From OCS155 cluster bacterium AG-349-E07 (GTDB taxonomy: Bacteria; Actinomycetota; Acidimicrobiia; Actinomarinales; Actinomarinaceae): a stretch of 64,000 nt of DNA. Made by a program: the position numbers and the translations under genes. Of the stretch, positions 5,878 to 61,212 are shown one piece after another. Below the pieces are notes generated by a model. It made no database searches and was not told the DNA's origin. It saw only the letters and a program-made list of their open reading frames with translations. Numbering within the stretch: the first letter of the stretch is position 1; each line of letters begins with the position of its first letter. The stretch is from assembly GCA_003281085.1 (NCBI GenBank), contig QCCZ01000001.1, positions 99,452 through 163,451 of the forward strand, written 5' to 3'.

Positions 5878-7005
5878 ATGACCCAAAGTGATATTCTTTT
5901 AAAACATCTCTCAACTGTATTTGACCCTGAATTAGGGGCGAATATCGTTGAATTAGGGATGGTTAAAGATGTTCAGCATGTAGATAAAACAGTAACAATC
6001 AAATTAGCTCTGACAATAGCTGACTGTCCAATGAGGAATCAAATAGAAACAGAAATCAATAGAAAACTAAAGCTTTTGGAAAATGTTGAAACAGTAGAGA
6101 TAGAAATCACTGCAATGGATCAAAAAGATCGAACTGCTGTTATGGAAAAAGCAAGAGAAAAAGCTAGGGAAAATGCTCAACCAACAAATGTTGATCCTAG
6201 AACTAGAGTGATTGCTATTGGAAGTGGAAAAGGTGGAGTAGGGAAATCAACTTTATCTGCAAATATTGCATTAGGTTTAGCAAAAAAAGGATTTCAAACT
6301 GGACTGTTAGATGCAGATATTTGGGGATTCTCAATACCAAGGCTGTTAGGAATAACTGGAAGAATTGAAGCAAATAGTGACAAAAAAATGATTCCTTATG
6401 AGATTGGAAATTTAAAAGTAATCTCAACTGGTCTCATAACAAGCGATGAAGATACTGCATTGATGTGGAGAGGCCTTATGTTAAGTAAAGCACTTGAACA
6501 ATTCTTAACTGACGTGGAATGGGGAGATTTAGATTATCTGATAATTGACCTACCGCCTGGTACAGGAGATATACAAATGGCTCTAAGTAGATTACTTCCA
6601 CAAGCTGAGCTAATTGTTGTTACAACTCCACAATTAATGGCACAAAAAGTTGCAACAAGAGTTGCCGATATGGCAAAGAGAAGTTTCATCCCTCTGTTGG
6701 GAGTAATTGAAAATATGTCATACTTTGAATCAGACACTGGAGAAAAATATAATATTTTTGGTGAGGGTGGAGGTGAAGCTTTGTCGGATAAATTTGGAAT
6801 ACCTCTCTTAGGAAAAGTTCCTATTAGTGAAAACACAAATAATGTAGCAGACAGTGGAACTCCATTAATTGATCAAAATAATTCTATTACGAAAGTAGAG
6901 ATAGAAAAATTAATAAACAATATTGCTATCCAACTTCCTCCAATTATTGATGAAACATGTACTGGAAGACTAGCAAAAGTTTTTGAGGAACTTTCAAATC
7001 AATGA
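5878..7005 (+). CDS. mrp: Mrp/ApbC Fe-S cluster carrier ATPase with N-terminal DUF59/MIP18 domain
   Basis: deviant Walker A GKGGVGKST, ParA-like fold, N-terminal DUF59-like segment; 4-nt ATGA overlap with selA. Confidence 0.85.
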   Translation: MTQSDILLKHLSTVFDPELGANIVELGMVKDVQHVDKTVTIKLALTIADCPMRNQIETEINRKLKLLENVETVEIEITAMDQKDRTAVMEKAREKARENAQPTNVDPRTRVIAIGSGKGGVGKSTLSANIALGLAKKGFQTGLLDADIWGFSIPRLLGITGRIEANSDKKMIPYEIGNLKVISTGLITSDEDTALMWRGLMLSKALEQFLTDVEWGDLDYLIIDLPPGTGDIQMALSRLLPQAELIVVTTPQLMAQKVATRVADMAKRSFIPLLGVIENMSYFESDTGEKYNIFGEGGGEALSDKFGIPLLGKVPISENTNNVADSGTPLIDQNNSITKVEIEKLINNIAIQLPPIIDETCTGRLAKVFEELSNQ

Positions 7006-8297
7006 ACCCTATTTCTGTTAATGAATTAACTGAATCAGTAAACTCTAATTTACCAAGAGATATAAAATCTACGATTGCAAAAAATATACTTTCAGAGGAA
7101 AAAGACTCTGATGTTGCAAAAAATATATTCTCTGAAATTATAAATGATTTAAGTTCAAAAACTCAAAGAGAAGTTGTAAATGCAACTGGTACTGTACTAC
7201 ATACAAACTTAGGTCGTTCTCCAAATAACATAAGCTTTCCTGGAAGTTATACAAATATTGAATACGATTTAAAGACTTTATCTAGAGGAAAAAGAAATGA
7301 ATACCTATCTGTACTTATGAATAACCTTATAGAATCTCAGGATATTGCTTTTGTAAACAACAATGCCTCTTCTCTTTTTCTCTCATTAAAAGCCATTTCT
7401 AAGTCACATAATATTCAAAATGTAATTATTTCTAGAGGTGAAATTATAGAAATTGGAGGCTCATATAGGCTTCCTGAAATAATCAATGAGACTGGTTTAG
7501 ACCTTGTAGAGATAGGCACAACAAACAAGACTAAATTGAGTGATTACAGAAAAGCATTAGAAAAGTACCCAAATTCTTTGATATTAAAAGTTCACAGGTC
7601 AAATTTCTCAATCAAGGGTTTTACAGAGGATGTTTCAATTGAAGAACTCGCTGAATTAAAAAATAAATTTGACGTTTTTCTTTTTCATGACTTGGGGAGT
7701 GGTTTAGTAATTGATAAGAAATTTTTAGAAATTAATAATATAAGTATCTTCAAAGATGAACCATTTGTGCAAGATTCACTTTCTGATGGTGCAAATTTAG
7801 TTATGTTTTCTGGAGACAAATTATTTGGGTCAGTTCAATCTGGAATGATTGCAGGAGATGACGACTTGGTTAATGAAATTAAAAACTACAGTTTGTTTAG
7901 AACTTATCGTTGCTCACCTATGACCTTATTTGAACTTCAAGAGACTGTACTTAAATATATAAATAAACAAGAAAAAGAGATACCTTTTTGGAATCTTATT
8001 ACACAACCTTATTCCTCCTTAGAAGATAGGTGTAAAAATTTGGCTAAATCTATTTCTTTTTCTACAAGCATAGAAAAAGGTGAAAGTGTAATTGGTGGAG
8101 GAACACTACCAGATGTCACTTTAGAATCACCTATCTTACTTATAAATAATGAAAAAACAGTAGATACTGTCAATCAGTTAATTAAAAACGATATCCCCAT
8201 AATTCCAAGAATTATTAAGGATCAAGTTTGTCTTGATTTAAGAAGTGTATTTCATAATCAAGATAACATAATTGTACAAGCATTAAATAATTCATGA
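7002..8297 (+). CDS. selA: L-seryl-tRNA(Sec) selenium transferase (selenocysteine synthase)
   Basis: blocks match E. coli SelA: ATGTVLHTNLGR, EYDL..RGKR, FVNNNA, SRGEIIEIGGSYRLPE, EIGTTNKT, FSGDKLFG..Q.G; overlaps selB start (ATGA). Confidence 0.85.
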   Translation: MNPISVNELTESVNSNLPRDIKSTIAKNILSEEKDSDVAKNIFSEIINDLSSKTQREVVNATGTVLHTNLGRSPNNISFPGSYTNIEYDLKTLSRGKRNEYLSVLMNNLIESQDIAFVNNNASSLFLSLKAISKSHNIQNVIISRGEIIEIGGSYRLPEIINETGLDLVEIGTTNKTKLSDYRKALEKYPNSLILKVHRSNFSIKGFTEDVSIEELAELKNKFDVFLFHDLGSGLVIDKKFLEINNISIFKDEPFVQDSLSDGANLVMFSGDKLFGSVQSGMIAGDDDLVNEIKNYSLFRTYRCSPMTLFELQETVLKYINKQEKEIPFWNLITQPYSSLEDRCKNLAKSISFSTSIEKGESVIGGGTLPDVTLESPILLINNEKTVDTVNQLIKNDIPIIPRIIKDQVCLDLRSVFHNQDNIIVQALNNS

Positions 8298-9967
8298 CCG
8301 TACTTGCAACTGCAGGCCATGTAGATCATGGAAAATCAACTTTTGTAAATTTTTTAACAGGTCAAGAAACTGACAGATTAAAAGAAGAAAAAATCCGCGG
8401 ATTAACTATAAATCTTGGATATACCTATTTTGAATTTAAAAATAGAAGAATATCTATTGTTGATGTCCCTGGTCATGTTGACTACTTTAAAAACACCATT
8501 GCAGGATTTGCAAATGTCGACGGTATAATTTTTTGTATCGACTCTGTTCAGGGGTGGTCTAGACAATCAGAGGAACATTTTCAAGCAATTAGAAATCTGC
8601 AGATTAATAATATTTTTTTTGTACTAACAAAAACAGATTTACTAGATTCTCCAGTTGATAAAAGTTATCTTGAAAAAAAATTAAAAGATGAAAAAGAAAT
8701 AAATTACACAATTGATGAATTTACTTATAAAACTAGCGATCTTAAACTATTTCAAGAAAAAATAGTAAACTTCTTTAAGTCTGACTCATTTGAAAACCCA
8801 AATTCATTATGGATTGATCGTAGTTTTACCAAGGATGGAATTGGTAAAGTTATAACTGGTACTGCTTCTATGGCTTTTGATTTAGAAAATATGTATCTTG
8901 CTAGGACAAACAAATTATTAGAAGTAAAAGAAATACGAAATAGTGAAGATAAAGTTAAAAATATTACATCCACATCAAGAATTGCTATCTCTCTCAAGAA
9001 GGGTACTCAAGACGATATTAGTCGAGGCGATTTGTTAACGAATGGAGTTGTTTCTTCAGGTAAATATATTTTTGCAATTTTAAATGGAAATGATAATGGG
9101 TTTAAGAACAAAGGAAGCAATAGATTGTTTGTTGGGACAATAAATCAAATTGTCAAAAGATTAGAGATTATAAATGCTTCAGAAAAAATTTTAATATATA
9201 TAGAGCTACCAAATAAATTACCAATATTAGAAAACCAGAAAATATTAATTCAAAACATGGTGTCTAATGATTTCATAGGTGGAAAAATTGCATTTGTTTC
9301 GAATAATAATAATTTAGTTAAAACATTTTTCAGACAAGTTCGAAAAACTGAATTTATTGATGTAGAAAAAGCATTTACTCTTCTTTCAGAAAATCTAAAG
9401 GAAAATTCCAAAGATTATATAGATATAAGCAACAAATACATATCAAAAGATTATTTGGAACGTATGACCCAAAAAATTAAGGAAAATATAAAAACTATAA
9501 ATTCGGTTGGTGTTAAAAATTATTTCCATGATCAATTTTTCATAGAGGATAATTATATTGATGAATTAATAGATAAAATCGATGGGTTAAATATTATAAA
9601 TGACCAGTTATTTGTTGATAAAGAAACAGTTGTTGATTTAGAGGTTTACCAGAACGTTATCAAGGAGATGTCGACCGATCTATCAGTTAAACGTGTTGAT
9701 ATAGATAAGTTCAATAAAGAATCTATAAAAGAACTCTTTATGAACGAGTATCTATTTAGAGTTAATAAAAATATAATTATTGGAAAAGAGCATAAATCAG
9801 AGCTTGTTGAAATTCTGGAAAAATTACCTGATATTTTTGATGTATCCGAATTTAAAGAAGCTTCTAATTTATCCAGAAAGTATGCGATACCTTATTTGGA
9901 GTTTTTAGATAAATGTTTATATACTTCAAAAATTAATAGTTCAGGAAAAAGAAAAAAATTAGTTTGA
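8294..9967 (+). CDS. selB: selenocysteine-specific translation elongation factor
   Basis: N-terminal ATAGHVDHGKST, DVPGH GTPase motifs matching SelB; long C-terminal extension ending in a winged-helix-like segment (RKYAIPYLEFLDK). Confidence 0.85.
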   Translation: MTVLATAGHVDHGKSTFVNFLTGQETDRLKEEKIRGLTINLGYTYFEFKNRRISIVDVPGHVDYFKNTIAGFANVDGIIFCIDSVQGWSRQSEEHFQAIRNLQINNIFFVLTKTDLLDSPVDKSYLEKKLKDEKEINYTIDEFTYKTSDLKLFQEKIVNFFKSDSFENPNSLWIDRSFTKDGIGKVITGTASMAFDLENMYLARTNKLLEVKEIRNSEDKVKNITSTSRIAISLKKGTQDDISRGDLLTNGVVSSGKYIFAILNGNDNGFKNKGSNRLFVGTINQIVKRLEIINASEKILIYIELPNKLPILENQKILIQNMVSNDFIGGKIAFVSNNNNLVKTFFRQVRKTEFIDVEKAFTLLSENLKENSKDYIDISNKYISKDYLERMTQKIKENIKTINSVGVKNYFHDQFFIEDNYIDELIDKIDGLNIINDQLFVDKETVVDLEVYQNVIKEMSTDLSVKRVDIDKFNKESIKELFMNEYLFRVNKNIIIGKEHKSELVEILEKLPDIFDVSEFKEASNLSRKYAIPYLEFLDKCLYTSKINSSGKRKKLV

Positions 9968-13482: not shown

Positions 13483-13866
13483 ATGAAAAATTTAATTTAC
13501 ATCCTTCTGGGAGCAGGTTTTTTAGCAATTATTTCCTCAAGTGCATCAGGGTTTTTAACTACTGAAACAAGTAATACTCTTGATAACCTATATGAAGAAA
13601 CTTTCTACATTGATCCAGAAAATATTGAAATCACAAATAACAACATCGTGATTACACTATCACAACAAAATAAAAATAACGCCGAGAAGAAAATTAATGA
13701 TTGTTTAAATTATTACAAAAAAGTTTATGAAAATTTAAATATAAATTGTGATTTAGTAGTAAAAGAAAGTGTTGCGCTTAATTCTTCTTGTGTGCACAAA
13801 TCAGGCGTTTTTGTTAAAGAAGAAAATCAGGAATATATAAAGATTACTACCTACAGCAACTGCTGA
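13483..13866 (+). CDS. small secreted Cys-containing hypothetical protein
   Basis: N-terminal signal-peptide-like segment; four Cys; no homolog recognised. Confidence 0.3.
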   Translation: MKNLIYILLGAGFLAIISSSASGFLTTETSNTLDNLYEETFYIDPENIEITNNNIVITLSQQNKNNAEKKINDCLNYYKKVYENLNINCDLVVKESVALNSSCVHKSGVFVKEENQEYIKITTYSNC

Positions 13867-14139
13867 TTAGTCGAATATTGAACCTAAAAGACTATCTTCT
13901 TCAGTTTCTATTTCAGCTATTGTGTCACCAACATTTACTATGTCGCCCTCTTCACAAGCTAAGTCTGTAATTTCTCCGGAGTAAGGTGATTCTAGATCCA
14001 TATCAACTTTGTCAGTGGAAATTTCACATATAGTGGCACCCTTCTCAATCTTTGAACCAACTTCAACTTTCCAACTTAAAATTTCAGCTTCGGTCATTTG
14101 ATCAGACATTGCCGGTAATTGAATTTTTTCTTTTGCCAT
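13867..14139 (-). CDS. free-standing lipoyl-attachment domain protein (no E2 catalytic domain)
   Basis: EILSWKVEVGSKIEKGATICEISTDKVDMDLESPYSGEI matches the E2 lipoyl-domain consensus with lipoyl-Lys in TDKV; ORF ends after about 90 aa. Confidence 0.65.
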   Translation of the reverse strand: MAKEKIQLPAMSDQMTEAEILSWKVEVGSKIEKGATICEISTDKVDMDLESPYSGEITDLACEEGDIVNVGDTIAEIETEEDSLLGSIFD

Positions 14140-17347: not shown

Positions 17348-17703
17348 TTGTTTATCCTTAAATTATCCCCAATGCTTATATTAGGTTTATTATCAAATGT
17401 ACACCTGACATCTCCAAGCTGTGCTTCCTCAGTTGAAGAGTCAAGTTTTAAAACTAAATGACCTAAATTTTTAAAGTTTTCATTGGCTACAGGCCCTACA
17501 GAGACAACTTCTAAATTAGAATCTGAAAGACTTATTTTTGTTCCAACTACTATTTCACCAGAGATTTGCTCTAGTTTATGTATTACCGCAAAATCTTGAA
17601 GTTCCTCTGGTGCATTGTCACCAAAAAAAACTACAATTCCTTCATCTAAAAATAAATTAGCTTGTTCGCCTATTCTTACTATTTCTGAAGAATAAATTTG
17701 CAT
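17344..17703 (-). CDS. srlB: PTS glucitol/sorbitol-family EIIA component
   Basis: aligns by eye to E. coli SrlB (EIVRIGEQA vs TITRIGASA; LGHLVLKLDS vs LGHVTLRFDG); about 119 aa. Confidence 0.7.
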   Translation of the reverse strand: MQIYSSEIVRIGEQANLFLDEGIVVFFGDNAPEELQDFAVIHKLEQISGEIVVGTKISLSDSNLEVVSVGPVANENFKNLGHLVLKLDSSTEEAQLGDVRCTFDNKPNISIGDNLRINN

Positions 17704-18080
17704 TAAGCTTCAGTAACTTGATCCTCAGAAACTCCAGAAACAAAGTTCTCTTCTTTAATAAATTGAGCAAGTGGACCTGCTGGTGTAGTGTCATGAATAT
17801 CAATCGTTGGTACGCCCTTCATAGGATATACACCGATTCTCGCAGTTCCTCCACAATCAATTACTGCACAAGCCATGGCTTTAAAGCTTCCCTCTGGTGA
17901 TGATTTAAAGCCATCAAAGGCTTCCGCCCCAGTTAAATCAGCAATTTTTTGAGCAACTGGATGAATTCCTCCACCAGTAACGCAAACAATGTATTTTTTT
18001 TCATCAGTTGGTTGTATTTCTAAAGGGCCTCCCCAACCACTTGGCCCTGCTTCTACTTTTACTTTTTTATAATCTGCCAT
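17703..18080 (-). CDS. PTS glucitol/sorbitol-family EIIB domain protein (homolog of the SrlE N-terminal domain)
   Basis: GWGGPLEI, AVIDCGGT, PTIDIHDT, GPLAQFI blocks match the SrlE EIIB domain. Confidence 0.7.
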   Translation of the reverse strand: MADYKKVKVEAGPSGWGGPLEIQPTDEKKYIVCVTGGGIHPVAQKIADLTGAEAFDGFKSSPEGSFKAMACAVIDCGGTARIGVYPMKGVPTIDIHDTTPAGPLAQFIKEENFVSGVSEDQVTEA

Positions 18081-18100
18081 AGTTTCTCCTTTAAAAATAT

Positions 18101-18130
18101 GTAACGCTCTGATTTTAGTCAGAGCGTTAC
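18101..18130 (-). terminator. intra-operon perfect 12-bp-stem hairpin (GTAACGCTCTGA-TTTTAG-TCAGAGCGTTAC) followed on the transcript by AUAUUUUUAA, then the RBS of the EIIB gene; partial terminator or attenuator candidate
   Basis: palindrome read directly from the sequence, placed between the EIIC-domain and EIIB genes. Confidence 0.4.
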
Positions 18131-18157
18131 AAATTTAAAAATTGTTAAGTTATGTCT

Positions 18158-18682
18158 TTACAAACCTAGTGCAAATAAATAACCAACAACGACTGAGATT
18201 GGTCCAGTAATCATTCTACTTGTTAGAACTGCTGGAACACCAACCGTAACTGTCTCCGGTTCTGCTTCACCAAGAGCCAGACCAACTGGTACGAAATCAC
18301 AACCAACCTGTGGGTTAATTGCAAATAAAGCTGGAAGCGCCATTGAAACATCAATGTTTCCACGTCCAATTTCAGTACCAATTAGAACACCAACGATCTG
18401 AGCAATTACTGCACCAGGTCCTAGTAGTGGTGATAAAACAGGTATTGCGCATATGATACAAACTATCATTAATCCGCCTAAACTACTTGCAAAACCTTTT
18501 ATACCATTTGCAATAGCGTCACCAACACCGGTTTCTAAAATTAAACCAATGACAAAAGTAACGAATGCCATAAATGGAATTATTGTTTTTAAACATAGGT
18601 CAACAGCATCTCGACCTGCTTGGAACAATGTTCCAACCACGCCACCAACTGATCGACCAATTCTCTCTATTAAAGCTTGCAT
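18158..18682 (-). CDS. PTS glucitol/sorbitol-family EIIC domain protein (homolog of the SrlE C-terminal membrane domain)
   Basis: SPLLGPGAVIAQIVG, LPALFAINPQVGCDFVPVGLALGEAEPETV blocks resemble the SrlE membrane domain as I recall it; about 174 aa, several TM. Confidence 0.6.
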   Translation of the reverse strand: MQALIERIGRSVGGVVGTLFQAGRDAVDLCLKTIIPFMAFVTFVIGLILETGVGDAIANGIKGFASSLGGLMIVCIICAIPVLSPLLGPGAVIAQIVGVLIGTEIGRGNIDVSMALPALFAINPQVGCDFVPVGLALGEAEPETVTVGVPAVLTSRMITGPISVVVGYLFALGL

Positions 18683-19785: not shown

Positions 19786-20466
19786 TTAAATCATTTCCTC
19801 AAGTTTAAAGATATCTTCTATAAAAGTTACCTTCATGTTTCTTGGATCGCCAGGAATTACTACTGCCTCAAGCTCAGAATATTTTGATACGCATTCTGTT
19901 GTGTCTACTGCTTGCCATTTATCTAATTTTGCTAATTCATAGGATTTCCAAAGTTCTGAAGCTGGAAATATCTGTGGAGTTTGTATCTCTACAATTGTTT
20001 CTTGGATTTCTTCTTTGTTAAATTCCTGTTTTTTCATAAGATTATCTGAGTTATACCCAGGAGCTGAAGCTCCATATTTTTTTGCAACATCAATAAGCTC
20101 GTCTAACAAATAACTAGGTAACAGAGGTCTTGCGCCATCATGAATTAAAATTAGGTCTTCTTCATTTATATCTGGTCTTTCTTTTAAATAAAGAAGTCCT
20201 TGATATTCACTTTCATGTCTTGTGTTCCCACCAATTGTTACACCAGATAATTTTTTGGGATTAACTAGCTGAATTACATTATTAGTTTTTTCCCAGTCTT
20301 CATCCCTTACAACCAAAATTATTGAGTCAACTTTATCGGAATTATCTAGTGTCTCTAGTGGCCAGGAAAGTGCTGGCTTACCGCCAATTGGAAAGTAAAC
20401 TTTGTTTTCTTCATTATTAAACCTGTCGCTAGAACCACCAGCTAGAAGAATAGAATGTACTTTCAA
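19786..20466 (-). CDS. IspD/TarI-family polyol-phosphate cytidylyltransferase
   Basis: N-terminal ILLAGGSSDRF and GGKP nucleotide-binding motifs; about 226 aa; 4-nt overlap with ptsI. Confidence 0.65.
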   Translation of the reverse strand: MKVHSILLAGGSSDRFNNEENKVYFPIGGKPALSWPLETLDNSDKVDSIILVVRDEDWEKTNNVIQLVNPKKLSGVTIGGNTRHESEYQGLLYLKERPDINEEDLILIHDGARPLLPSYLLDELIDVAKKYGASAPGYNSDNLMKKQEFNKEEIQETIVEIQTPQIFPASELWKSYELAKLDKWQAVDTTECVSKYSELEAVVIPGDPRNMKVTFIEDIFKLEEMI

Positions 20467-22094
20467 TTTATAATTTCTTGAATAATCGTTCTAACCTCAT
20501 CAGCATTATTCTGTTGTAAAATCTGATCTTTTATCTTTTGTTTGTTAATTTTTGAGTGTGTATCTAAAGCATCAAATACAAAAGGAGCTGCTGAAGGTGC
20601 CATACTAAATATCTTTAAACCTAAAATGTATAAAACAAATGCTGAGACGGGATCTGATGACATTTCACCACATACTGACACCTCGGTATTATTTGCATTA
20701 CAACAATCAATTACATTAGAAATTGCCCTAAGTACCGCTGGATGAAGTGGGTCTTGGTACGGGCTTAAATTATTGTTGCCACGGTCTGCAGCCATAATGT
20801 ACTGCGTCAAATCGTTGGTGCCAATAGATATGAAATCAACAATTTCTGAAAACTTATCAGCAATCAATGCTGACGAGGGTGTCTCTACCATGATACCGAG
20901 TGGGGGAACTTCAACATTTAAGTTATTCGCTATTTTAGCAACAAACTCTTTTGCTTTTATAAAATCTTCTATAGTAGAAATCATTGGAAACATAATTTTT
21001 AATCTTCCTAATGATTTAGAATTTAAGATTGATTTTATTTGTGTGTCAAATAATTCAATATCATCCAACAATAATCTAATACCCCTTACGCCAAGAAAGG
21101 GGTTTTCTTCTGAAGGTAAATTCAGATAATCTACTTGTTTGTCACCTCCAATATCAAGAGTTCTATAGACAATTATTCCAGTGAATTTTTGAGTTATTTG
21201 TTCTAGAACCCTTGTTTGTTCCTCAAGTGTTGGAATGGTTGTGTTGTCTAAATATATAAACTCGGACCTAAATAAGCCAATGGAGTTTAAAAAGGGATGA
21301 TTAAATGAAATAATCTCCTCTAAAGAACCAATATTAACTCTGAATTCTACTCCTAATTCTTCGTACTTTTTTTTAGTAAAATTATCAATCAACTTTGTTA
21401 TATTGCCTTGTTTTTCTTTGAATTCAGATATCTGATTCTCACTTGGAGAAATAACAATATTCCCCGTATCACCGTCAATTGTCATTAACTCGCCATCTGC
21501 AATATTGTCGAGCAAACTTTTTACGCCGATCACGCAAGGGATACCCAAATTCTTTGCAACGATAACAGCATGCGAAGTAAACCCTCCTTCTTTTAATATA
21601 ATTCCATTAACTTTACTCAAATCCATTGATGATGTATCTGCAGGTGTTAAGTCTTCAGCGATTAAAATAGTGTTTTCGTTTAAAGTAATTTCTCTTTCAA
21701 TGTTTTGCATATTGAAAACAAGGTGTTTTCCTACAGAGAGTATGTCTTCAGCTCGTTGCTTAAAATAAACATCTTCCATTGATTCAAATACACTTGCAGT
21801 GGACGTAAAAATACTATAAACCTCTTCGACTGAAGAATCTGAATTTTGATTTAGTTGAGCCACTATTTCAGGATCTTGAAGGATCAATATGTATGCATCT
21901 AAAATGTCAGCTTCATCATTTCTTTCTTTTGAGCGGAAATCAAGGATTTGAGAACTAAATTTTTCAATCAGTTGTTTGCTAGCCTCAACATGAGTGAGGA
22001 TTGCTTCTTTATCAAAATCTATCTCATTTTCATAAACAAATGATGAACCTATTGCAACACCTAATGAAGCACCTAGTCCCTTAACACTTGTCAT
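20463..22094 (-). CDS. ptsI: phosphoenolpyruvate--protein phosphotransferase (PTS enzyme I)
   Basis: phospho-His region GGFTSHAVIVAKNLGIPCVIG; GTNDLTQY; CGEM motifs. Confidence 0.85.
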   Translation of the reverse strand: MTSVKGLGASLGVAIGSSFVYENEIDFDKEAILTHVEASKQLIEKFSSQILDFRSKERNDEADILDAYILILQDPEIVAQLNQNSDSSVEEVYSIFTSTASVFESMEDVYFKQRAEDILSVGKHLVFNMQNIEREITLNENTILIAEDLTPADTSSMDLSKVNGIILKEGGFTSHAVIVAKNLGIPCVIGVKSLLDNIADGELMTIDGDTGNIVISPSENQISEFKEKQGNITKLIDNFTKKKYEELGVEFRVNIGSLEEIISFNHPFLNSIGLFRSEFIYLDNTTIPTLEEQTRVLEQITQKFTGIIVYRTLDIGGDKQVDYLNLPSEENPFLGVRGIRLLLDDIELFDTQIKSILNSKSLGRLKIMFPMISTIEDFIKAKEFVAKIANNLNVEVPPLGIMVETPSSALIADKFSEIVDFISIGTNDLTQYIMAADRGNNNLSPYQDPLHPAVLRAISNVIDCCNANNTEVSVCGEMSSDPVSAFVLYILGLKIFSMAPSAAPFVFDALDTHSKINKQKIKDQILQQNNADEVRTIIQEIIN

Positions 22095-22169: not shown

Positions 22170-22628
22170 ATGCAAATTTTAGTGCTTGAGATTAATACTT
22201 CTATTACTTTGTTTAATTTAAGTGACAAAAATGGGTCACTTAAATTCGAGAATTTAGGAGAAATACAAGACTCAAATCAATTAAATTTTAGTGACGAAAC
22301 AAAGTGCTTGATTATAGATTCAACAGCACCTGAAGAGCCAAAGCTTTCAATGTTACTTACAAATTTTATTAATTCGGAATACAAGATAACTACCAATAAT
22401 GTAACTAATGCTATTAAGAAAATAAACACAGATGGTCAGATAATTGAGCACCTTGATCGTGAAGAATACACAAGGTTGTCAACACCTTCAAAAGCAACTA
22501 TTGGAATGGTCAAGTCATACTTTAATAAATACGCATCATGGAGCTTTAATAAATTTATAGCTTTGCATAGTTCTTACTATGACCAATACCAGACTCTCGA
22601 GCCTGAAGTCTATTTAGAATCTAAATAG
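22170..22628 (+). CDS. hypothetical protein
   Basis: ORF only. Confidence 0.25.
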   Translation: MQILVLEINTSITLFNLSDKNGSLKFENLGEIQDSNQLNFSDETKCLIIDSTAPEEPKLSMLLTNFINSEYKITTNNVTNAIKKINTDGQIIEHLDREEYTRLSTPSKATIGMVKSYFNKYASWSFNKFIALHSSYYDQYQTLEPEVYLESK

Positions 22629-36626: not shown

Positions 36627-37202
36627 TTGCTTCGTTGTTATGCTTGGATAATGATAAGAATATTCGACTTTTTATTTTCTTTTTTTGGATTGTTGGTACT
36701 ATCTCCAGTTCTTTTAATTTTATTTGTAATTACTTATTTTGATACTGGCTCACCATTGTTTCGCCAAGAAAGAATTGGTAGGTTTGAGGAGCCTTTTACT
36801 CTAATAAAATTTCGTACGATGCAGTTTGATACAGCATCAGTTGCAAGCCACTTGGTCGATAAATCAGCAATAACACCTATTGGTTCATTCTTGCGTAAAT
36901 CACACCTAGATGAACTTCCACAACTTTGGAATGTATTAAAAGGTAATATGAGTTTAGTCGGTCCTCGTCCAGCTTTGTTTAGCCAGGAAAAATTAAGAGA
37001 CGCAAGAAAAAAATACGATGTTTATAGAGTACGCCCAGGTATTACTGGGCTTTCACAAGTTAGTGGTCTTGACACTTCTACCCCCGAGCTTCTTGCTGAG
37101 ACTGATGCAAAGATGATACAAAATTTATCTTTAATCGATTACTTTAAATTTATTATCGCAACTGCTAGTGGAAAAGGTGGGGGTGATGCAGCTCAGCGAT
37201 AA
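36627..37202 (+). CDS. bacterial sugar transferase (WbaP/PglC-like phosphoglycosyl transferase)
   Basis: PLFRQERIG, KFRTM, DELPQLWNVLKGNMSLVGPRP signature. Confidence 0.8.
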   Translation: MLRCYAWIMIRIFDFLFSFFGLLVLSPVLLILFVITYFDTGSPLFRQERIGRFEEPFTLIKFRTMQFDTASVASHLVDKSAITPIGSFLRKSHLDELPQLWNVLKGNMSLVGPRPALFSQEKLRDARKKYDVYRVRPGITGLSQVSGLDTSTPELLAETDAKMIQNLSLIDYFKFIIATASGKGGGDAAQR

Positions 37203-37206
37203 TTTT

Positions 37207-38670
37207 TTATTCATTAGGAAGTATTGACATAAGCTCATCTTCAGAACTGTTCATAATAAAATTTCTAAATTCTTTTTCATATGAAATATAGTCCTTTCCA
37301 AATGTATTTTGGAAATTTTCAGGAAATAAAATACCTGACTGTGAATTGATCCAAAAGTCATACATTGTTTGTTCTCCATGAGTATTTGTTAAGTAAGCTA
37401 TAAACCATGCACCAACTTGATAACCTACAGCCCAATCACTTTCCCATGTAACGTTATATAATTCAGGTCCATCTAAATATCGTTCTTTTATTGTTGGTTG
37501 ATTATCTCCACAATAACAACTGAACAATCCACCATACATTTCATTTTCTAAATGAGAGAAATCATTTATGTCTCGGGAGTAATAAAGATGTGAAAAATAT
37601 GTGGCATATCCCTCCATCCAGAACGGTTTGTCCCTTTTGTCATCTCCTATTCTCTTGCCAGTAATTTTTTGTTGTAATTCATAGTCAAAATCTATAACAT
37701 TCGAAATCTGGAAGATATGATACATTTCATGAATAGTTACATATGCTTGTGATCTACTATCCCAGGATAAATCAAATGAACCACTTATAAAAAGATAACA
37801 ACATTCTCTATTGCTAGGTGCTCCGCTAATAGAAGAGCCTGAGACTCTTCCACCATCTGTAAACAATCCGATACTTCCGTCGGCTTTCCTGTCATGATTC
37901 TGCGGATTACATCGAGAATTATTAAATGTTGTGGGATATTCGTCATTTATGTATTGGCAATATTCTTCCTCTAAGGTGATTGCGGATTGATAATTTTCAG
38001 AGTCTAGTTGTACAACCAGTATTGGATATAAGTTTTCTCTTTTTACACGTATATCTGTAAACAAAATCTGTTCTGTATATTCAATATATTTTGTGAGAAT
38101 ATCAATGTGTTGATCTGAGATAGTTGATGCTTTAAAAACTTTTACATCTCTATAATCAAGATAGTTCTCAGATGATGGGATTGTTGTTCTTGGTGTAGAA
38201 CTAGATTGGTCAGTATTGCCAAATCTCTCTTGGTATTTCATTCCAACGGTTCCATACATCTGTGGTACATTTGCGTACTCATTGTTTATAAATGCAAATA
38301 GATTTCTGTACTCTTCTGTGAAAGCTTCTGGATAATTCTGAAAGTAACTATTTAAATCGTTCATATATTGTTCAAGTTCATTGGCATAGCTAAAAACGAA
38401 TTCTAAATTATCTCTATATTGACGAAGACATTCTTCTGATGTTGAGTCTATATCTTGAGCATCACTACATAATTCATTAACAAGTTTTGAATTATAGATA
38501 TCAATAATATCAAAATTAACCGATGGTATAGGTGGTATAGATTCCTCTTGACTAACTTCAGGTGTCGTATTTTGATTTTCATTTATGGTTGGTTGTAAAG
38601 ATTCTTCTGGTGTCGATGATGTTCCGCCACACATAAAAAATATCAATAACAAAGACAGGTGTCTTTTCAT
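37207..38670 (-). CDS. secreted Cys-rich lipoprotein with HExxH motif (putative zinc metallopeptidase)
   Basis: N-terminal LLIFFMCGGTSS lipobox-like signal; HEMYH; about 16 Cys. Confidence 0.4.
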   Translation of the reverse strand: MKRHLSLLLIFFMCGGTSSTPEESLQPTINENQNTTPEVSQEESIPPIPSVNFDIIDIYNSKLVNELCSDAQDIDSTSEECLRQYRDNLEFVFSYANELEQYMNDLNSYFQNYPEAFTEEYRNLFAFINNEYANVPQMYGTVGMKYQERFGNTDQSSSTPRTTIPSSENYLDYRDVKVFKASTISDQHIDILTKYIEYTEQILFTDIRVKRENLYPILVVQLDSENYQSAITLEEEYCQYINDEYPTTFNNSRCNPQNHDRKADGSIGLFTDGGRVSGSSISGAPSNRECCYLFISGSFDLSWDSRSQAYVTIHEMYHIFQISNVIDFDYELQQKITGKRIGDDKRDKPFWMEGYATYFSHLYYSRDINDFSHLENEMYGGLFSCYCGDNQPTIKERYLDGPELYNVTWESDWAVGYQVGAWFIAYLTNTHGEQTMYDFWINSQSGILFPENFQNTFGKDYISYEKEFRNFIMNSSEDELMSILPNE

Positions 38671-38712
38671 TCGTAATACCTATTGTTGTATAACAGCCAC
38701 CTCACACAAAAT

Positions 38713-38744
38713 ATTACAATGACAATCGAAAATAGCATTGTAAT
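38713..38744. promoter_or_regulatory. palindrome ATTACAATG-N14-CATTGTAAT in the upstream region of the 37207..38670 gene
   Basis: read directly from the sequence. Confidence 0.3.
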
Positions 38745-38805
38745 GTTTGGAAATAAGTACAGAAGTGTTATAGATCCAATAATCGTTAAAAAAATTACCA
38801 ACATT

Positions 38806-39471
38806 TTATGTTGTTCCTGGTTTATAAAATACTTTATTCTTACCTTTAACTAAATGATACTTTTCCATCAAAGCTTCTTTATCTTGCTCTACAGAATTAG
38901 TTAAGGACATTGCTTCCATCAATTCAAATCTTCTATTCTCATAATCAATCTTTGTAGGTACCACGGTAGCATCCAAGGCTTTTCCAATATAGTGAAAACC
39001 ACTTTTAATTGTCTGATTGGTTTTCATCTCTCCCTCAACTGTGAGATACAGGATAAACTTCTCTTTTGACTCAAGCTGTTCAATTACTTGTTTAGTAACT
39101 CCGGTTGATTTAGCCCGCCAAACCGGAATTCCACCAAATTCATGAAGGACTCTATTTTGAAATTTTCCAAAAGGATGTGGGATACCTAACTTATCTGGAT
39201 TTTTTTTAAATGGTAGCGGTACGACAATTCGTGTGAACATTGAGACGGAACCAAGAAAATGAAATTTTAAATCTGTTGCCAAACATACAAAATAGGCATA
39301 TATAGCATCGAAGGTAGATGAGTGAGGAGCCGAAGCAATTATGATTCTTTTTTTATCAGGAAGATATCCGACTACATCCCAATTAATAACTTTTAAAACG
39401 AATCTTCCAAATGGCCCAAGAAATTTTCTTACTCTAATTGGATGATTTTCTGTCTTAATAATCTGATCCAT
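38806..39471 (-). CDS. PlsC-like acyltransferase
   Basis: HX4D motif (APHSSTFDAI). Confidence 0.5.
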   Translation of the reverse strand: MDQIIKTENHPIRVRKFLGPFGRFVLKVINWDVVGYLPDKKRIIIASAPHSSTFDAIYAYFVCLATDLKFHFLGSVSMFTRIVVPLPFKKNPDKLGIPHPFGKFQNRVLHEFGGIPVWRAKSTGVTKQVIEQLESKEKFILYLTVEGEMKTNQTIKSGFHYIGKALDATVVPTKIDYENRRFELMEAMSLTNSVEQDKEALMEKYHLVKGKNKVFYKPGTT

Positions 39472-39480
39472 GTACTTATG

Positions 39481-40770
39481 CTAATTATTTGTTATCTCTT
39501 TTACCTGCCTTGAGAGATTTCTTAAATTTTTGTTATTGAAATTTAAAATCCATATTCCTACATACAATATTCCTACAATAAAAAATAGAAAAGCATAGCC
39601 TCTTCCGTGACCTAAACCAACAAACGGAGAGAGTAATTCAATATTGTTTGGATAAAAATCAAACTCTAGATAATCTCCCAGAGGACCTGCAATAATAACA
39701 CCTAGTGGTCTTAGCATCTGGGCAATGGTACCTCTTAATGCTAAAGCTCTTCCTCTGATATCTTCTGTAGTTATAGCTAGCCATGCGCCTGAAGAAACCG
39801 TATATTGGACTGTCCCACTAACACCGTTAATAATCCCATGTATGCATAGAAGAATTATGCTTGGTCTAAGAGAACCTAAGATTAAGCTTATTCCACCTAA
39901 AAGACCCATATAAATCGCTACCTTTAAATTTCCTTGAAGCTTGTCTGCGAATCGTAGGGAAATTATCGAACCTAGTAGAAAAGCTAGACCAATGCTTGAT
40001 TCAACAATGCCTAGGCCTCTTGCGTCTGTGAAACTAAGTATCATCGGAGGGAGTAAAACCTGAGTAAAGCCCCAGAGAAAGTTACAAACACCCAGAATAA
40101 GTACTAAAGAAAGTAGGCCTTTCTGTTTCTTCAGCCAATTGTATGCTTCAGTTAAATCAAAATAAACATTTTTAATACTTAAATCACTTTTTACCTCAGT
40201 TTTGCTGCTTTTGAAAAAGGTAATGGTTGCAATTCCAAAAAAACAGGTAACTATATCTACAATTATTACACCTGTTAATCCAAAAAATGAATAAATAAAA
40301 GCTCCGCCAATAGGGCCAATAAGAACTGATATCGCTTCGGCACTTTCAAATAATGCTGAGACTTTTGTTACTTCATTTTTTTTGACGACGTCACCCAAAA
40401 AAGCACTCCAAGTTGTCCAGTGAGCTATTTCAAAAACACCAAATGCTAATGCAAATGGAATCAAAAGAGTTAATGTCAACATATCATTTAATGCTAAATA
40501 ACCAATAAGGCACATCAGTGCAGCAATAATCAAATCAAAACTAATTATCAATTTTTTCCGTGGAAACCTATCTGCTAATACTCCTCCAAACGGCCCAGTA
40601 ATTACGCCAACTATTGCAACAATAAATAATATTGATGAAAGTGCGCTTGCTTTGCCTGTTGTTTCATATATCCAAACACCAATTGCAAAAAAAGACATCG
40701 CAGAACCTGTCCAAGAAACAGTTTGTCCAAACCACAGAAAATATACTTTTTTGCTCATAATGACTTTCAA
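39481..40770 (-). CDS. MFS transporter
   Basis: 12 TM pattern; about 429 aa. Confidence 0.7.
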   Translation of the reverse strand: MKVIMSKKVYFLWFGQTVSWTGSAMSFFAIGVWIYETTGKASALSSILFIVAIVGVITGPFGGVLADRFPRKKLIISFDLIIAALMCLIGYLALNDMLTLTLLIPFALAFGVFEIAHWTTWSAFLGDVVKKNEVTKVSALFESAEAISVLIGPIGGAFIYSFFGLTGVIIVDIVTCFFGIATITFFKSSKTEVKSDLSIKNVYFDLTEAYNWLKKQKGLLSLVLILGVCNFLWGFTQVLLPPMILSFTDARGLGIVESSIGLAFLLGSIISLRFADKLQGNLKVAIYMGLLGGISLILGSLRPSIILLCIHGIINGVSGTVQYTVSSGAWLAITTEDIRGRALALRGTIAQMLRPLGVIIAGPLGDYLEFDFYPNNIELLSPFVGLGHGRGYAFLFFIVGILYVGIWILNFNNKNLRNLSRQVKEITNN

Positions 40771-40828
40771 GTAGAGATAATAGTTGTATTTGAATGCTAC
40801 GTAAGTTGTCTTATTTTTTAAGGTTGAA

Positions 40829-41191
40829 TTAGTAAATTAACACTCTATCTGCCTCAAAAGTAAGTTCAACAAGTTTATTTGGAGTAGCAGGAGTAAAGCC
40901 TAAAGATTCTAATTGGTCTTTAGTTATTCCCCTTGCTTGCGCAGATTTACCGGAGGCATAAAGAACGGCACCTTTTAGTTTTAATTCTTCTAAATGATCT
41001 GAAAGAGTCCCGAGTCCAACACCTTGCATTTCTTTTGTTGTGATGTCATGAAGAGAAGTTACTCCGTCCCCTGCACAGAATATGGTGACTTCATTACCAT
41101 CTTCTATTGCTGATTTGGCAACCAGAAATCCCAATACTGAACGACTAGGATTTTCAACTCCCGTAATAATATGCACTAATAATTTACCCAT
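40829..41191 (-). CDS. DsrE/DsrF-like family protein
   Basis: about 120 aa; MGKLLVHIITG..NP and conserved Cys (FCAGDGV) pattern. Confidence 0.4.
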   Translation of the reverse strand: MGKLLVHIITGVENPSRSVLGFLVAKSAIEDGNEVTIFCAGDGVTSLHDITTKEMQGVGLGTLSDHLEELKLKGAVLYASGKSAQARGITKDQLESLGFTPATPNKLVELTFEADRVLIY

Positions 41192-41217
41192 GTAATGAAT
41201 AATAAAAGATTATATTT

Positions 41218-42234
41218 TTGAATATGTTGTTTTTTAAAATTAAGCTGAAAGATACAAAGATTAATTACAAAAAAATGATTAGCAAAGAAGCACAAAAAAG
41301 TATTAAAAGGTTTAAAAGAGCATCATCATTTATCGGGCTACTTTACAAATCTCCAAAAGAAATGACCTCAGGAAGAATGAAGATTGGTAGATGGTTTAAT
41401 AACTTACAAGGAACTGTATTTCCTAAAGTAAAAGGGACAAAAAAAGAAGTAATTTACCTAGACAATATAAGATCGTTTAAAATTTCTACCCCTAATTCAG
41501 ATCCAGAGAGGATTCTTCTTTACTTTCATGGTGGTGGTTATTCACTAGGAAGTCCTGAGTCTCACTATGCTTTAGCTAGTTATTTAGCTGATATTACCAA
41601 AACTGTTGTTTATGTTCCAGACTATAGACTTGGTCCAGAACATAAATTTCCAGCACAACTAGAAGACGGTATAAAAAGTTATAAATTTTTGATAGATGAA
41701 TTAGGTTACTCTCCTGAACAAGTAGCAATTTCAGGAGATTCCGCTGGAGGTCATCTCGCTTTAATTACACTGTTAAAACTAAAAGAAGACGACATCCAAC
41801 TTCCATCTGCATTAGCACTATTATCACCTTGGACTGACCCAAGTGCTTCTGGTGATACCTACACATATGAAATGGCAGATAGAGACATAATGCTTGGGCC
41901 TTTATTTAAAAAAATTTGGGAAAACGGTGATCAACTTTATGAATATTACCTAAATCAAGAAGATTATGATGAAAAAGATAAGTATGTTATCCCACTTAAG
42001 GGAAATTATGAGAACTGCCCTCCAATAATGATTCAGGTGGGGACTGAAGAGCTTTTGTTATCTGACTCACAGAGATTAAGAGATGTACTAAAAGAAGACA
42101 ATTGTGAGCATGAATACTATGAATGGGAAGATATGTATCATGTGTTTCACGTAGATGTAAGAATGCCTGAAACAATTGAGGCATTTAACCAAATTGGTAA
42201 TTTTTTAAGAAAACATATTGGTATTAAATTATAA
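41218..42234 (+). CDS. alpha/beta-hydrolase esterase/lipase (HSL family)
   Basis: HGGGY oxyanion motif and GDSAGG nucleophile elbow. Confidence 0.8.
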   Translation: MNMLFFKIKLKDTKINYKKMISKEAQKSIKRFKRASSFIGLLYKSPKEMTSGRMKIGRWFNNLQGTVFPKVKGTKKEVIYLDNIRSFKISTPNSDPERILLYFHGGGYSLGSPESHYALASYLADITKTVVYVPDYRLGPEHKFPAQLEDGIKSYKFLIDELGYSPEQVAISGDSAGGHLALITLLKLKEDDIQLPSALALLSPWTDPSASGDTYTYEMADRDIMLGPLFKKIWENGDQLYEYYLNQEDYDEKDKYVIPLKGNYENCPPIMIQVGTEELLLSDSQRLRDVLKEDNCEHEYYEWEDMYHVFHVDVRMPETIEAFNQIGNFLRKHIGIKL

Positions 42235-42240
42235 AGTTTT

Positions 42241-43230: not shown

Positions 43231-43247
43231 GGATTGGGATTTACAAT

Positions 43248-44084: not shown

Positions 44085-44141
44085 ATTGTCCTTTTTACAA
44101 ATTTGATTGAATTATTAAAAAAATTTCATTAGGTTGTAATT

Positions 44142-57375: not shown

Positions 57376-57390
57376 AATTTCCTTTCTTTT

Positions 57391-58035: not shown

Positions 58036-58099
58036 TTGTTTTATTTTTTACTCTACGGAATAATTTCCTATTTAAATGTTTCCATTACTTACCTCAGAA

Positions 58100-58726: not shown

Positions 58727-58738
58727 ATATTTCCTTTC

Positions 58739-59389: not shown

Positions 59390-59415
59390 TTTCCTCCTTT
59401 AACAAATCAATAGTA

Positions 59416-60057: not shown

Positions 60058-60060
60058 AAA

Positions 60061-60594: not shown

Positions 60595-60633
60595 TTTATT
60601 TTCTTTCTCCTTTTTCTAATATTCTCTTTCTTT

Positions 60634-61191: not shown

Positions 61192-61212
61192 CGATTAAAC
61201 TCCTGTTCTTTT

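Follow-up and report, generated by a model that had tools for sequence, protein, structure and literature searches.

A Gut-family phosphotransferase system, a DXR-II-type oxidoreductase and a distinct IspD-like cytidylyltransferase form a gene cassette shared by several bacterial phyla

Introduction

The gene string analyzed here combines relatives of systems that have been described separately: the glucitol/sorbitol (Gut) phosphotransferase system (PTS), the DXR-II oxidoreductases, the IspD and TarI cytidylyltransferases, and the acetoin dehydrogenase complex. The string lies in a 64,000-nucleotide stretch of contig QCCZ01000001.1 (positions 99,452 to 163,451, forward strand; hereafter, the window) of OCS155 cluster bacterium AG-349-E07, of the order Actinomarinales. 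Its starting point for this analysis was an IspD-like cytidylyltransferase gene that overlaps the end of ptsI, the gene of PTS enzyme I (EI). Ca. Actinomarina is among the most abundant bacteria of the ocean. We report that the IspD-like gene is a component of a conserved cassette found in several phyla, and we propose that this cassette may serve the uptake and use of methylerythritol-like compounds.

The gut/srl operon of E. coli and Salmonella (TC 4.A.4) comprises genes for IIC (SrlA), IIBC (SrlE), IIA (SrlB), GutM, the short-chain dehydrogenase SrlD, SrlR and GutQ. The Salmonella sorbitol PTS reportedly transports 2-C-methyl-D-erythritol besides sorbitol, and a dxr mutant is reported to be rescued by methylerythritol. 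DXR-II, also called DRL, is the DXP (1-deoxy-D-xylulose 5-phosphate) reductoisomerase-like enzyme of Brucella abortus, said to have been described by Sangari in 2010 and Perez-Gil in 2012. Active DXR-II is on record in organisms that lack the pathway via MEP (2-C-methyl-D-erythritol 4-phosphate) or have the mevalonate pathway only, and the 2013 survey of the family lists no actinobacterial DXR-II (Carretero-Paulet 2013). The words PTS, phosphotransferase, sorbitol and genomic context are all absent from the main DXR-II survey.

In canonical IspD, T140 forms hydrogen bonds to the hydroxyls at C1 and C3 of methylerythritol, and hydrogen bonds also join MEP to R157 and K213 (PMC3111433, PMC11770629). 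According to published work, the beta-meander that carries T140 and R157 is the dimer interface, and Asp or Glu at position 140 inactivates the enzyme. All component families of the cassette are known; in the searchable literature, we encountered no description of these families as a conserved association, nor of the complementary IspD pair reported below.

Results

The IspD-like gene is part of a cassette found in several phyla

In the window, an 11-gene string on the minus strand encodes, in order, EI, the IspD-like protein, GutM, IIC, IIC2, IIB, IIA, DXR-II, E1 alpha, E1 beta and a lipoyl protein; HPr is encoded after the lipoyl gene, past one open reading frame (ORF) on the opposite strand (Table 1). 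The Gut PTS set is complete, with SrlA, both halves of SrlE (which together span the model), IIA and GutM; the latter two pass the Pfam thresholds and fall under the NCBI equivalog cut-offs. The window thus resembles the gut/srl operon in its IIC, IIBC, IIA and GutM homologs and departs from it in several respects: SrlR, GutQ and the short-chain dehydrogenase SrlD (sorbitol-6-phosphate dehydrogenase) are absent from the cluster, the gene following srlB is that of DXR-II, SrlE is split, and the E1/lipoyl and IspD-like genes, as well as those of EI and HPr, stand in the same string. The split SrlE (17703-18682, minus strand) has its membrane (C-terminal) half encoded ahead of the IIB (N-terminal) half, a permuted order shared by many other loci, with the fused order in others.

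To place this string in a wider context, one genome per species was scanned with the DRL alignment. The scan yielded at least 587 confirmed DXR-II loci, of which the best 80 were analyzed by counting tblastn homologs of the window genes within 10 kb of the DRL homolog. Among these best 80 of at least 587 loci, SrlA was found in 58, the two SrlE halves in 59 and 59, and SrlB in 57. Homologs of E1 alpha (46 loci), E1 beta (47) and the lipoyl/E2 protein (45) were also frequent, an IspD homolog was present in 41 and PtsI in 24. A SorC-type sugar-binding regulator recurs in 48 of the 80 loci, a full-length E2 with lipoyl, E3-binding and acyltransferase domains in 36, sometimes with E3, and a small Zn-ribbon protein, detected by ORF clustering, in 20.

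The PTS-bearing loci span Actinomycetota (Nocardia, Mycolicibacterium, Streptomyces, Amycolatopsis, Cryobacterium, Cutibacterium, Planktophila and others), Chloroflexota, Spirochaetota and Bacillota. Loci without a PTS, mainly from Chloroflexota and Aerophobetes, contain an FGGY sugar kinase and a Zn-dependent alcohol dehydrogenase together with the same type of regulator. In RefSeq annotation, Listeria monocytogenes has a regulator, DXR-II, GutM and PTS Gut IIC-IIB-IIA, and Ligilactobacillus has the same DXR-II/Gut-PTS core plus fsa and tkt. On a plasmid of Ligilactobacillus salivarius (L100, 13913-16572), genes for fructose-6-phosphate aldolase and transketolase replace E1/E2 after the core; they may provide an alternative way to cleave the same intermediate.

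The IspD-like gene is a component of this conserved multi-phylum cassette. The cassette core consists of the SorC-type regulator, GutM, the Gut-family PTS (IIC/IIB/IIA) and DXR-II. Two accessory modules are associated with the core: an acetoin/pyruvate-dehydrogenase-like E1 alpha/beta-E2(-E3) complex and a cytidylyltransferase unit, in which the catalytic IspD-like protein (A) is joined by a second, degenerate IspD homolog (D) and often by a Zn-ribbon protein (Z). In the window the cassette is streamlined: the regulator and Z are missing, E2 comprises only the lipoyl domain, D is probably shortened to 152 aa, and the general PTS genes ptsI and HPr stand at the ends.

The Zn-ribbon protein is Cys-rich, about 105 aa long and weakly matches Elf1-like proteins (E 0.005); it occurs in loci L016-L090 (for example, L071 8250-8567). 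Its gene, which is not in the window, almost always lies directly 3' of the cassette IspD-like gene and also accompanies cassettes without an IspD-like gene (Streptomyces, Rubrobacter).

No Actinomarinales genomes were among the matches listed in the DRL genome scan, and conservation within this order was assessed by exact-protein look-ups on related contigs. Marine metagenome assemblies and single-cell genomes that encode the exact IspD-like protein number in the thousands, and the surrounding gene string is the same in every case. When the IspD-like and DRL-like proteins served as queries in word-indexed homolog searches, only near-identical marine variants were obtained, and no distant relatives. 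In another Actinomarinales lineage (L095 and L096), mannitol PTS IIC, IIB and IIA genes and a mannitol-1-phosphate dehydrogenase gene precede HPr (L095 14007-17230, L096 11411-14634); this module, inserted between the lipoyl/ORF127 genes and HPr, is lacking in the window lineage. Because the mannitol module sits in the same EI...HPr frame, EI and HPr can be viewed as shared general components that bracket PTS modules, and because that module has its own dehydrogenase, DXR-II occupies the place expected for the dehydrogenase of the Gut module.

The preliminary description of this DNA, made from the sequence of the window, had presented ptsI as the partner of the cytidylyltransferase gene. This pairing does not hold up in the comparison: ptsI is a neighbor specific to Actinomarinales, and the conserved partners are DXR-II, E1/E2 and the degenerate IspD. 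Given that the IspD-like gene belongs to a multi-phylum cassette, its overlap with ptsI is best seen as operon compaction with no specific functional pairing.

In two actinobacterial groups, the cassette adjoins genes of the MEP pathway itself. The order carD...ispF-cysS marks the canonical actinobacterial ispD-ispF locus. In Nanopelagicales-type genomes (L037, L056, L066, L071, L080, L090), the whole cassette is flanked at one end by carD plus the D gene and at the other by ispF-cysS. In Microbacteriaceae, where the A/D pair is missing, the cassette has directly upstream of it a bifunctional ispDF that passes both equivalog cut-offs. Both arrangements connect the cassette with methylerythritol phosphate, not with glucitol.

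The same comparison bears on the most conventional explanation of the window genes, namely, a plain sorbitol/glucitol operon in which the DRL-like protein stands in for sorbitol-6-phosphate dehydrogenase, E1 is the pyruvate dehydrogenase of the cell, and a housekeeping ispD has been relocated by compaction. The matches of all PTS subunits to glucitol/sorbitol family models, the sorbitol PTS listed in the Actinomarinales genome paper, the position of the DRL-like gene directly after srlB, the routine occurrence of overlapping genes in this genome and the label IspD given to the protein by both NCBI and JGI are all in line with such an operon. However, the linkage of DXR-II, E1/E2 and IspD to the Gut PTS recurs in four phyla, in large genomes that have no need of compaction, and oxidation of glucitol-6-phosphate yields fructose-6-phosphate, a conversion for which no cleavage system dependent on thiamine pyrophosphate (TPP) and lipoyl groups is required. 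Furthermore, E1 alpha falls under the equivalog cut-off for pyruvate dehydrogenase, and, as detailed in the following sections, the oxidoreductase has the substrate-anchoring residues and the similarity tier of DXR-II, and the IspD-like protein comes from a cassette-specific subfamily instead of being canonical. We consider a plain sorbitol operon unlikely.

The oxidoreductase is of the DXR-II type and is encoded with dehydrogenase E1 subunits and a lipoyl protein

The window oxidoreductase matches Brucella abortus DRL (3UPL/3UPY) over the full length with 347 bits and has the same domain architecture. It keeps G121, E174, F178, K191, K193, T229, R320 and Y322 (Brucella numbering), among which K191, K193 and T229 are reported to anchor fosmidomycin/substrate, and E174, F178, R320 and Y322 are dimer residues. 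In an alignment of 60 sequences (58 homologs, the Brucella protein and the window protein), K191, K193 and R320 do not vary, 55 sequences have T229 and 54 have G121. Unlike the Brucella enzyme, the window protein has Asn for His250 and Ile for Val351; position 250 is occupied by His in 33, Tyr in 11, Asn in 7, Ile in 6 and Thr in 3 of the 60 sequences. The identity is 44.3% to the protein of S. fredii NGR234 (348 bits) and 41% to that of Listeria, both listed as DXR-II, compared to 32.5% (201 bits) to the protein of C. necator N-1 listed as DLO2, a relative that is not a DXR. Judged by pairwise identity, the window oxidoreductase falls in the DXR-II tier, not in the DLO tier. With an oxidoreductase of the DXR-II type, the operon would contain the enzyme for the step just before IspD. 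What distinguishes the window gene from DXR-II/DRL as known is its location in a PTS/dehydrogenase operon, a setting that suggests a scavenging or catabolic role for DXR-II, either replacing the biosynthetic one or in addition to it.

Among the dehydrogenase genes, E1 alpha aligns with human pyruvate dehydrogenase E1 alpha at 199 bits, and the lipoyl protein scores 115 bits on a profile of the full-length E2 (about 445 aa) found at this position in other lineages. As in the acetoin dehydrogenase complex AcoABCL, a heteromeric TPP-dependent E1 alpha/beta is combined with a lipoyl-bearing E2; in contrast to AcoABCL, the window E2 has neither the acyltransferase nor the E3-binding domain, and no E3 gene lies nearby. 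By analogy with this complex, DXP would qualify as a substrate in that it is, like acetoin, a methyl ketol. The reduction of E2 to a 90-aa lipoyl domain extends to Actinomarinales in general, L095 and L096 included; elsewhere, the protein of about 445 aa retains the E3-binding and acyltransferase domains.

The same enzymes could in principle constitute a biosynthetic, alternative upper MEP pathway, in which E1 would make DXP as a substitute for DXS, DXR-II would make MEP, and the IspD-like enzyme would make CDP-methylerythritol, with the PTS as an unrelated neighbor or a regulator. In accord with such a pathway, the tightest adjacency in the cassette is that of DXR-II followed by the IspD-like gene, which is also seen in loci without PTS or E1 (L013, L062, L075), and cassette genes are embedded in the ispF-cysS/carD locus of some actinobacteria. 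The E1 subunits score weakly on DXS models, and a mutant pyruvate dehydrogenase E1 of E. coli can reportedly rescue the loss of DXS (PMC3424233). Yet E1 is accompanied by a full-length E2 and sometimes by E3, which implies oxidative acyl transfer rather than carboligation, and a transporter combined with a SorC regulator of the sugar-phosphate type is the pattern of a substrate-induced uptake operon. Streptomyces, Nocardia and Mycolicibacterium, in addition, presumably already carry the canonical MEP pathway. Of the explanations considered here, a biosynthetic upper pathway appears to us the least probable.

The IspD-like protein belongs to a distinct subfamily

The window A protein clears the Pfam IspD cut-off of 27 and reaches 138.5 bits on TIGR00453, the NCBI equivalog model of IspD, under the cut-off of 181.3; one other member of the subfamily (from L045) passes this model at 187.9 bits. 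The comparison with proteins of solved structure gave 76 bits for T. maritima IspD, 72 for B. subtilis TarI and 72 for B. subtilis IspD, and a poor score for mycobacterial IspD. The DRL-adjacent IspD homologs score 100-183 bits against the window protein and 37-73 bits against E. coli IspD. The pattern is reversed for the carD-adjacent bifunctional IspDF of Microbacteriaceae, which is nearer to E. coli IspD.

For the comparison of active-site residues, the annotated E. coli gene b2747 served as anchor of the alignment, and its numbering is used throughout. The window protein keeps R20, K27, D106, R109, T165 and K213, has Ser in place of G18, and carries Leu at position 140, Gln at 157 and Thr, instead of Asp or Glu, at 191. 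In the cassette clade as a whole, the catalytic set is kept and positions 140 and 157 are variable. Among six reference enzymes (three IspD, TarI, 4KT7 and human ISPD), R157 is present in all six and T140 in five. An exhaustive search was performed over 1.8 billion representatives, and the nearest 142 were inspected: 99 have Thr191, 85 lack both T140 and R157, and the canonical combination of residues first appears at about rank 37.

By these measures, the window protein belongs to a large, distinct IspD subfamily and is not a canonical IspD. It has in common with the canonical homodimeric enzymes (E. coli YgbP, B. subtilis, M. tuberculosis) the fold and the six residues listed above, and differs from them in lacking T140 and R157, in having Thr191, in scoring under the equivalog cut-off, in the lack of ispF alongside, and in usually being paired with a second IspD homolog that has no nucleotide-binding loop.

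The preliminary description had offered a choice between a housekeeping IspD that a PTS operon has recruited and a paralog whose substrate is the product of the PTS. Our findings come nearer to the paralog, given that the protein represents a cassette subfamily that also occurs in organisms with canonical ispD or ispDF, and that it groups with the DRL-adjacent homologs, no clustering with bona fide IspD being seen. Both may hold at once: since MEP is made or used by DXR-II, the product of the PTS is possibly the normal substrate of IspD. The lack of ispF, which the same description had pointed out, is borne out for the 64-kb window by domain annotation and by an IspF profile run in six frames. 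Neither ispF nor ispE, ispG, ispH, dxs or canonical dxr was detected in the window or in about 10 kb past each end; beyond the window, the left end has only envelope-sugar genes, and the right end is without MEP genes. The Actinomarinales papers with their supplements and a paper on a sister order are silent on other MEP genes of Actinomarina, the sole ispD entry in the supplement of the Actinomarinales paper referring to the glycotype island.

TarI/TarJ (Bcs1) is the other described system in which the gene of a polyol-phosphate-making NAD(P)H reductase adjoins that of an IspD-family cytidylyltransferase, and the window protein scores equally on TarI and IspD. Such similarities would fit a cytidylyltransferase of the TarI or CDP-glucitol type, which would convert a non-MEP polyol phosphate delivered by the PTS into a CDP-polyol for an envelope polymer. 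The structure scores quoted above (76, 72 and 72 bits) fail to separate IspD from TarI, the substrate pocket is changed across the subfamily at T140, R157 and position 191, and a CDP-6-D-glucitol pathway is known in Campylobacter (PMC10918830); in addition, the glycotype islands of Actinomarinales hold ispD-/tagD-like genes, and envelope-sugar genes are present elsewhere in the window. Against this stands the score of 77.8 bits on the TarI model NF001183, far under the cut-off of 166. The reductase is DXR-II, not a medium-chain dehydrogenase of the TarJ type, and neither TarJ nor teichoic-acid genes were found beside A at the window locus. TarI and human ISPD both keep T140 and R157, so their loss is no signature of TarI. 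Moreover, we found no glycosyl- or polyol-phosphate transferase among the recurrent members of the cassette, the recurrent regulator, PTS, DXR-II and dehydrogenase complex look catabolic, and beside the Microbacteriaceae cassette the A/D unit is replaced by canonical ispDF. We therefore regard a CDP-polyol enzyme as improbable.

An 'IspD' structure, 4KT7, has been solved for Anaerococcus prevotii DSM 20548, although the DXR-II survey states that DXR-II is the only MEP-pathway enzyme of this strain (PMC3847144). This case was considered as supporting evidence and dropped, since 4KT7 groups with TarI and human ISPD in the tree.

A degenerate IspD homolog accompanies the catalytic one

Thirty-five loci encode an A protein of the clade to which the window protein belongs (clade A), and in 25 of them the D gene lies beside A, usually in convergent orientation after the Zn-ribbon gene and sometimes divergently. 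Profile comparison relates the D family to reference IspDs with 98.9% probability. The P-loop glycines, R20 and K27 are missing from all 25 D proteins, and K142 and R157 are present in every one of them; T140 is kept in 17, the remainder having Ser or Ala. The residue losses of D and A are complementary. Because A has lost T140 and R157, which D keeps while having no loop for binding of cytidine triphosphate, we infer that A and D might pair as a heterodimer in which both contribute to one composite active site.

The possibility that D is simply a decaying canonical ispD was rejected: D accompanies the cassette in Nocardia and Mycolicibacterium, is divergently oriented elsewhere, and its arm residues are strictly conserved. 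In the Nanopelagicales-type genomes, the position of canonical ispD is occupied by a protein without the nucleotide-binding loop.

In the window, the candidate for a D-type partner is a 152-aa ORF divergent from ptsI. This unannotated gene is conserved at a length of 152-153 aa; every related contig carries it, and it can be traced down to 50% identity. Of 24,736 Pfam families, IspD matches it best (E 0.071), with residues 63-118 aligned to profile positions 114-170, exactly the region of the arm. On the profile of the D family (DEG), it scores 13.1 bits, compared to a maximum of 7.1 in 2000 shuffles, and hhalign comparison with the same family gave a P of 0.0011. When its AlphaFold model, with a predicted local distance difference test (pLDDT) value of 66, was searched with Foldseek against 350,542 PDB chains, the top 4 matches were IspD (E 0.016-0.025). 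The motif TNAIKK..DR..STP is shared with the partners in L083, L052, L013 and L015, the loci whose A proteins are the closest relatives of the window A protein, and both T140 and R157 are present. These lines of evidence are each weak and agree with one another; the ORF probably encodes a shortened partner of the D type.

Discussion

A model for the uptake and use of methylerythritol-like compounds

We hypothesize that the cassette serves the import, interconversion, cytidylylation and cleavage of methylerythritol-like compounds, a reading drawn from gene content and residue patterns to which we assign a probability of roughly one half. In this model, the PTS would import and phosphorylate a dephosphorylated intermediate of the MEP pathway. 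The likeliest substrate would be 2-C-methyl-D-erythritol, which would be turned into MEP; 1-deoxy-D-xylulose, which would be turned into DXP, is the alternative. DXR-II would interconvert MEP and DXP. The IspD-like enzyme, probably completed by the partner arm, would convert MEP to CDP-methylerythritol, which would enter isoprenoid synthesis, and the E1/lipoyl system would split DXP into glyceraldehyde 3-phosphate and an acetyl unit, so that the compound could be used as a carbon source. Methylerythritol is favored because Gut-family systems carry polyols and because the sorbitol PTS of Salmonella is reported to transport methylerythritol. If the substrate were 1-deoxy-D-xylulose, every enzyme would operate in the favorable direction. 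The nature of the substrate, the direction of flux and the heterodimer are what we infer, whereas the gene content, synteny and residue patterns described above are directly observed. Each of the three rival explanations considered in the preceding sections fits part of the data less well.

Several points weigh against the proposed model. Every annotation source names the PTS subunits glucitol/sorbitol. The DXR equilibrium favors MEP, so that a catabolic flux from MEP to DXP needs to be pulled by the dehydrogenase, and in the window E2 is reduced to the lipoyl domain, with no E3 in the cluster. A cytidylyltransferase has no obvious need in a catabolic cassette. At position 250 of DXR-II, where most members have His, the window protein has Asn. 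As to the composite active site, 10 of the 35 clade-A loci (2 of these 10 at contig ends) have no D nearby, and A may, in view of these loci, be active alone or with another partner; the loss of T140 and R157 could also signify a different substrate for A. The composite site presupposes that T140 and R157 act across the subunit boundary, as structure papers on E. coli IspD reportedly describe. In statistical terms, the homology between the 152-aa ORF and IspD is weak (E 0.07 and P 0.001; Foldseek E 0.016; AlphaFold2 pLDDT 66).

A more far-reaching version of the model, which we put forward as a tentative and rather doubtful extension, holds that DXR-II is primarily the dehydrogenase of a widespread PTS pathway that takes up free methylerythritol or deoxyxylulose shed by other organisms, and that these compounds are both salvaged, with the help of the A-D heterodimer, and burned, MEP being turned back into DXP and DXP split into glyceraldehyde 3-phosphate and acetyl-CoA by the acetoin-dehydrogenase-like complex. 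In Ca. Actinomarina, this pathway would then be the entry point of isoprenoid precursors and may replace dxs/dxr, which would make the isoprenoid supply of this organism partly dependent on scavenged compounds.

If the proposal is correct, it would provide a physiological role for DXR-II in organisms without the MEP pathway, an oddity on record since 2010-2013. Intermediates of the MEP pathway would be broken down by a new route, and a complex of the acetoin dehydrogenase type would have a new substrate. The A-D pair would clearly exemplify how an obligate homodimer gave rise to a catalytic subunit and a pseudoenzyme partner. Abundant, streamlined marine and freshwater actinobacteria would be scavengers of isoprenoid precursors, which bears on their unexplained growth requirements. 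Annotation would be affected as well, the PTS being now labeled "sorbitol" and the enzyme "IspD".

The ptsI junction and other features of the window

The coordinates of the cassette genes and adjacent features are given in Table 1.

Table 1 Genes and other elements of the cassette region, in window coordinates.
Feature	Position	Strand	Evidence and remarks
152-aa ORF, candidate truncated D-type IspD partner	22170..22628	+	Head-to-head with ptsI, 75-bp gap
ptsI, PTS enzyme I, 543 aa	20463..22094	-	TIGR01417 427.4 bits (cut-off 341.7); three PEP-utiliser Pfam domains
IspD-like cytidylyltransferase, 226 aa, TTG start, catalytic clade A type	19786..20466	-	Pfam IspD (PF01128) 112.5 bits
GutM-like protein, 137 aa	19243..19656	-	Pfam GutM 57.7 bits
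Gut-family PTS IIC, SrlA-like, 180 aa	18682..19224	-	NF049923 206.2 bits (cut-off 150)
Gut-family PTS membrane half of SrlE (IIC2), 174 aa	18158..18682	-	SrlE model positions 158-329; Pfam EIIBC-GUT_C 151 bits
Putative terminator-like 13-bp hairpin with T-rich tail	18100..18131	-	Consensus scan; in the 77-nt gap between the srlE halves
Gut-family PTS IIB (N-terminal half of SrlE), 125 aa	17703..18080	-	SrlE model positions 1-118; Pfam EIIBC-GUT_N 176.9 bits
Gut-family PTS IIA, SrlB-like, 119 aa	17344..17703	-	Pfam PTSIIA_gutA 100.3 bits
DXR-II/DRL-type oxidoreductase, 417 aa	16094..17347	-	Pfam DRL_cat 211 bits; 4-nt TTGA overlap with srlB
TPP-dependent dehydrogenase E1 alpha, 319 aa	15124..16083	-	TIGR03182 350 bits, under the cut-off of 393.85
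E1 beta, 327 aa	14148..15131	-	NF006667 323.3 bits (cut-off 321)
Lipoyl-domain protein, 90 aa, E2 remnant	13867..14139	-	Best NCBIfam match: acetoin dehydrogenase E2 lipoyl domain
127-aa ORF, hydrophobic N-terminus, no family match	13483..13866	+	Position kept across Actinomarinales; system membership uncertain
HPr, 108 aa	13063..13389	-	TIGR01003 74.7 bits (cut-off 47.9)

Both ORFs named in the preliminary description, those of PtsI and of the IspD-family protein, are present as described and share 4 nt (20463-20466). Their junction, which had been given as ATGA, instead reads TTGA on the coding strand, composed of a TTG start and a TGA stop (AAATTGAAAG). ATGA is found at the same junction in the more divergent relatives L095 and L096, which have an identical M-K-V-H N-terminus, and for this reason we consider the TTG start site sound. 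No Shine-Dalgarno-like motif was seen upstream of this start. Overlaps occur in 14 of the 50 same-strand adjacent ORF pairs of the window, and 8 of the 14 are 4 nt long; the overlap between ptsI and the IspD-like gene is real yet routine, with nothing exceptional about it in this window.

Throughout Actinomarinales, the 127-aa ORF separates the lipoyl gene from the next module. A WhiB gene is located near the cassette, and database sources attribute the IspD-like protein to Acidimicrobiaceae/Actinomycetota, which makes the actinobacterial assignment plausible. The window has a G+C content of about 33%. Scans for Rfam families and tRNAs gave no matches in it, and a promoter scan found sites to be rarer than in shuffled controls.

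Envelope-sugar genes (sugar transferase, epimerases, aminotransferase, glycosyltransferase) are located at 36627-45254 in the window and past its left end (L101). These flanking genes are probably part of the variable glycotype island of the order, which is reported to hold separate ispD- and tagD-like genes in some cells.

On the plus strand, a gene for SelA is followed by one for a SelB-type GTPase (7002-9967), SelB-type Pfam domains being seen on the corresponding gene of related contigs. The two genes agree with a recent report that selenocysteine machinery is universal in Actinomarina. Finally, two runs of tandem paralogs without family annotation occupy 56740-61842 on the minus strand. 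The first consists of four soluble proteins of about 211-216 aa that are 25-35% identical, and is interrupted by a 208-aa ORF in which similarity to neither paralog set was detected; the second comprises three apparently membrane proteins of about 177-209 aa that are 26-30% identical.

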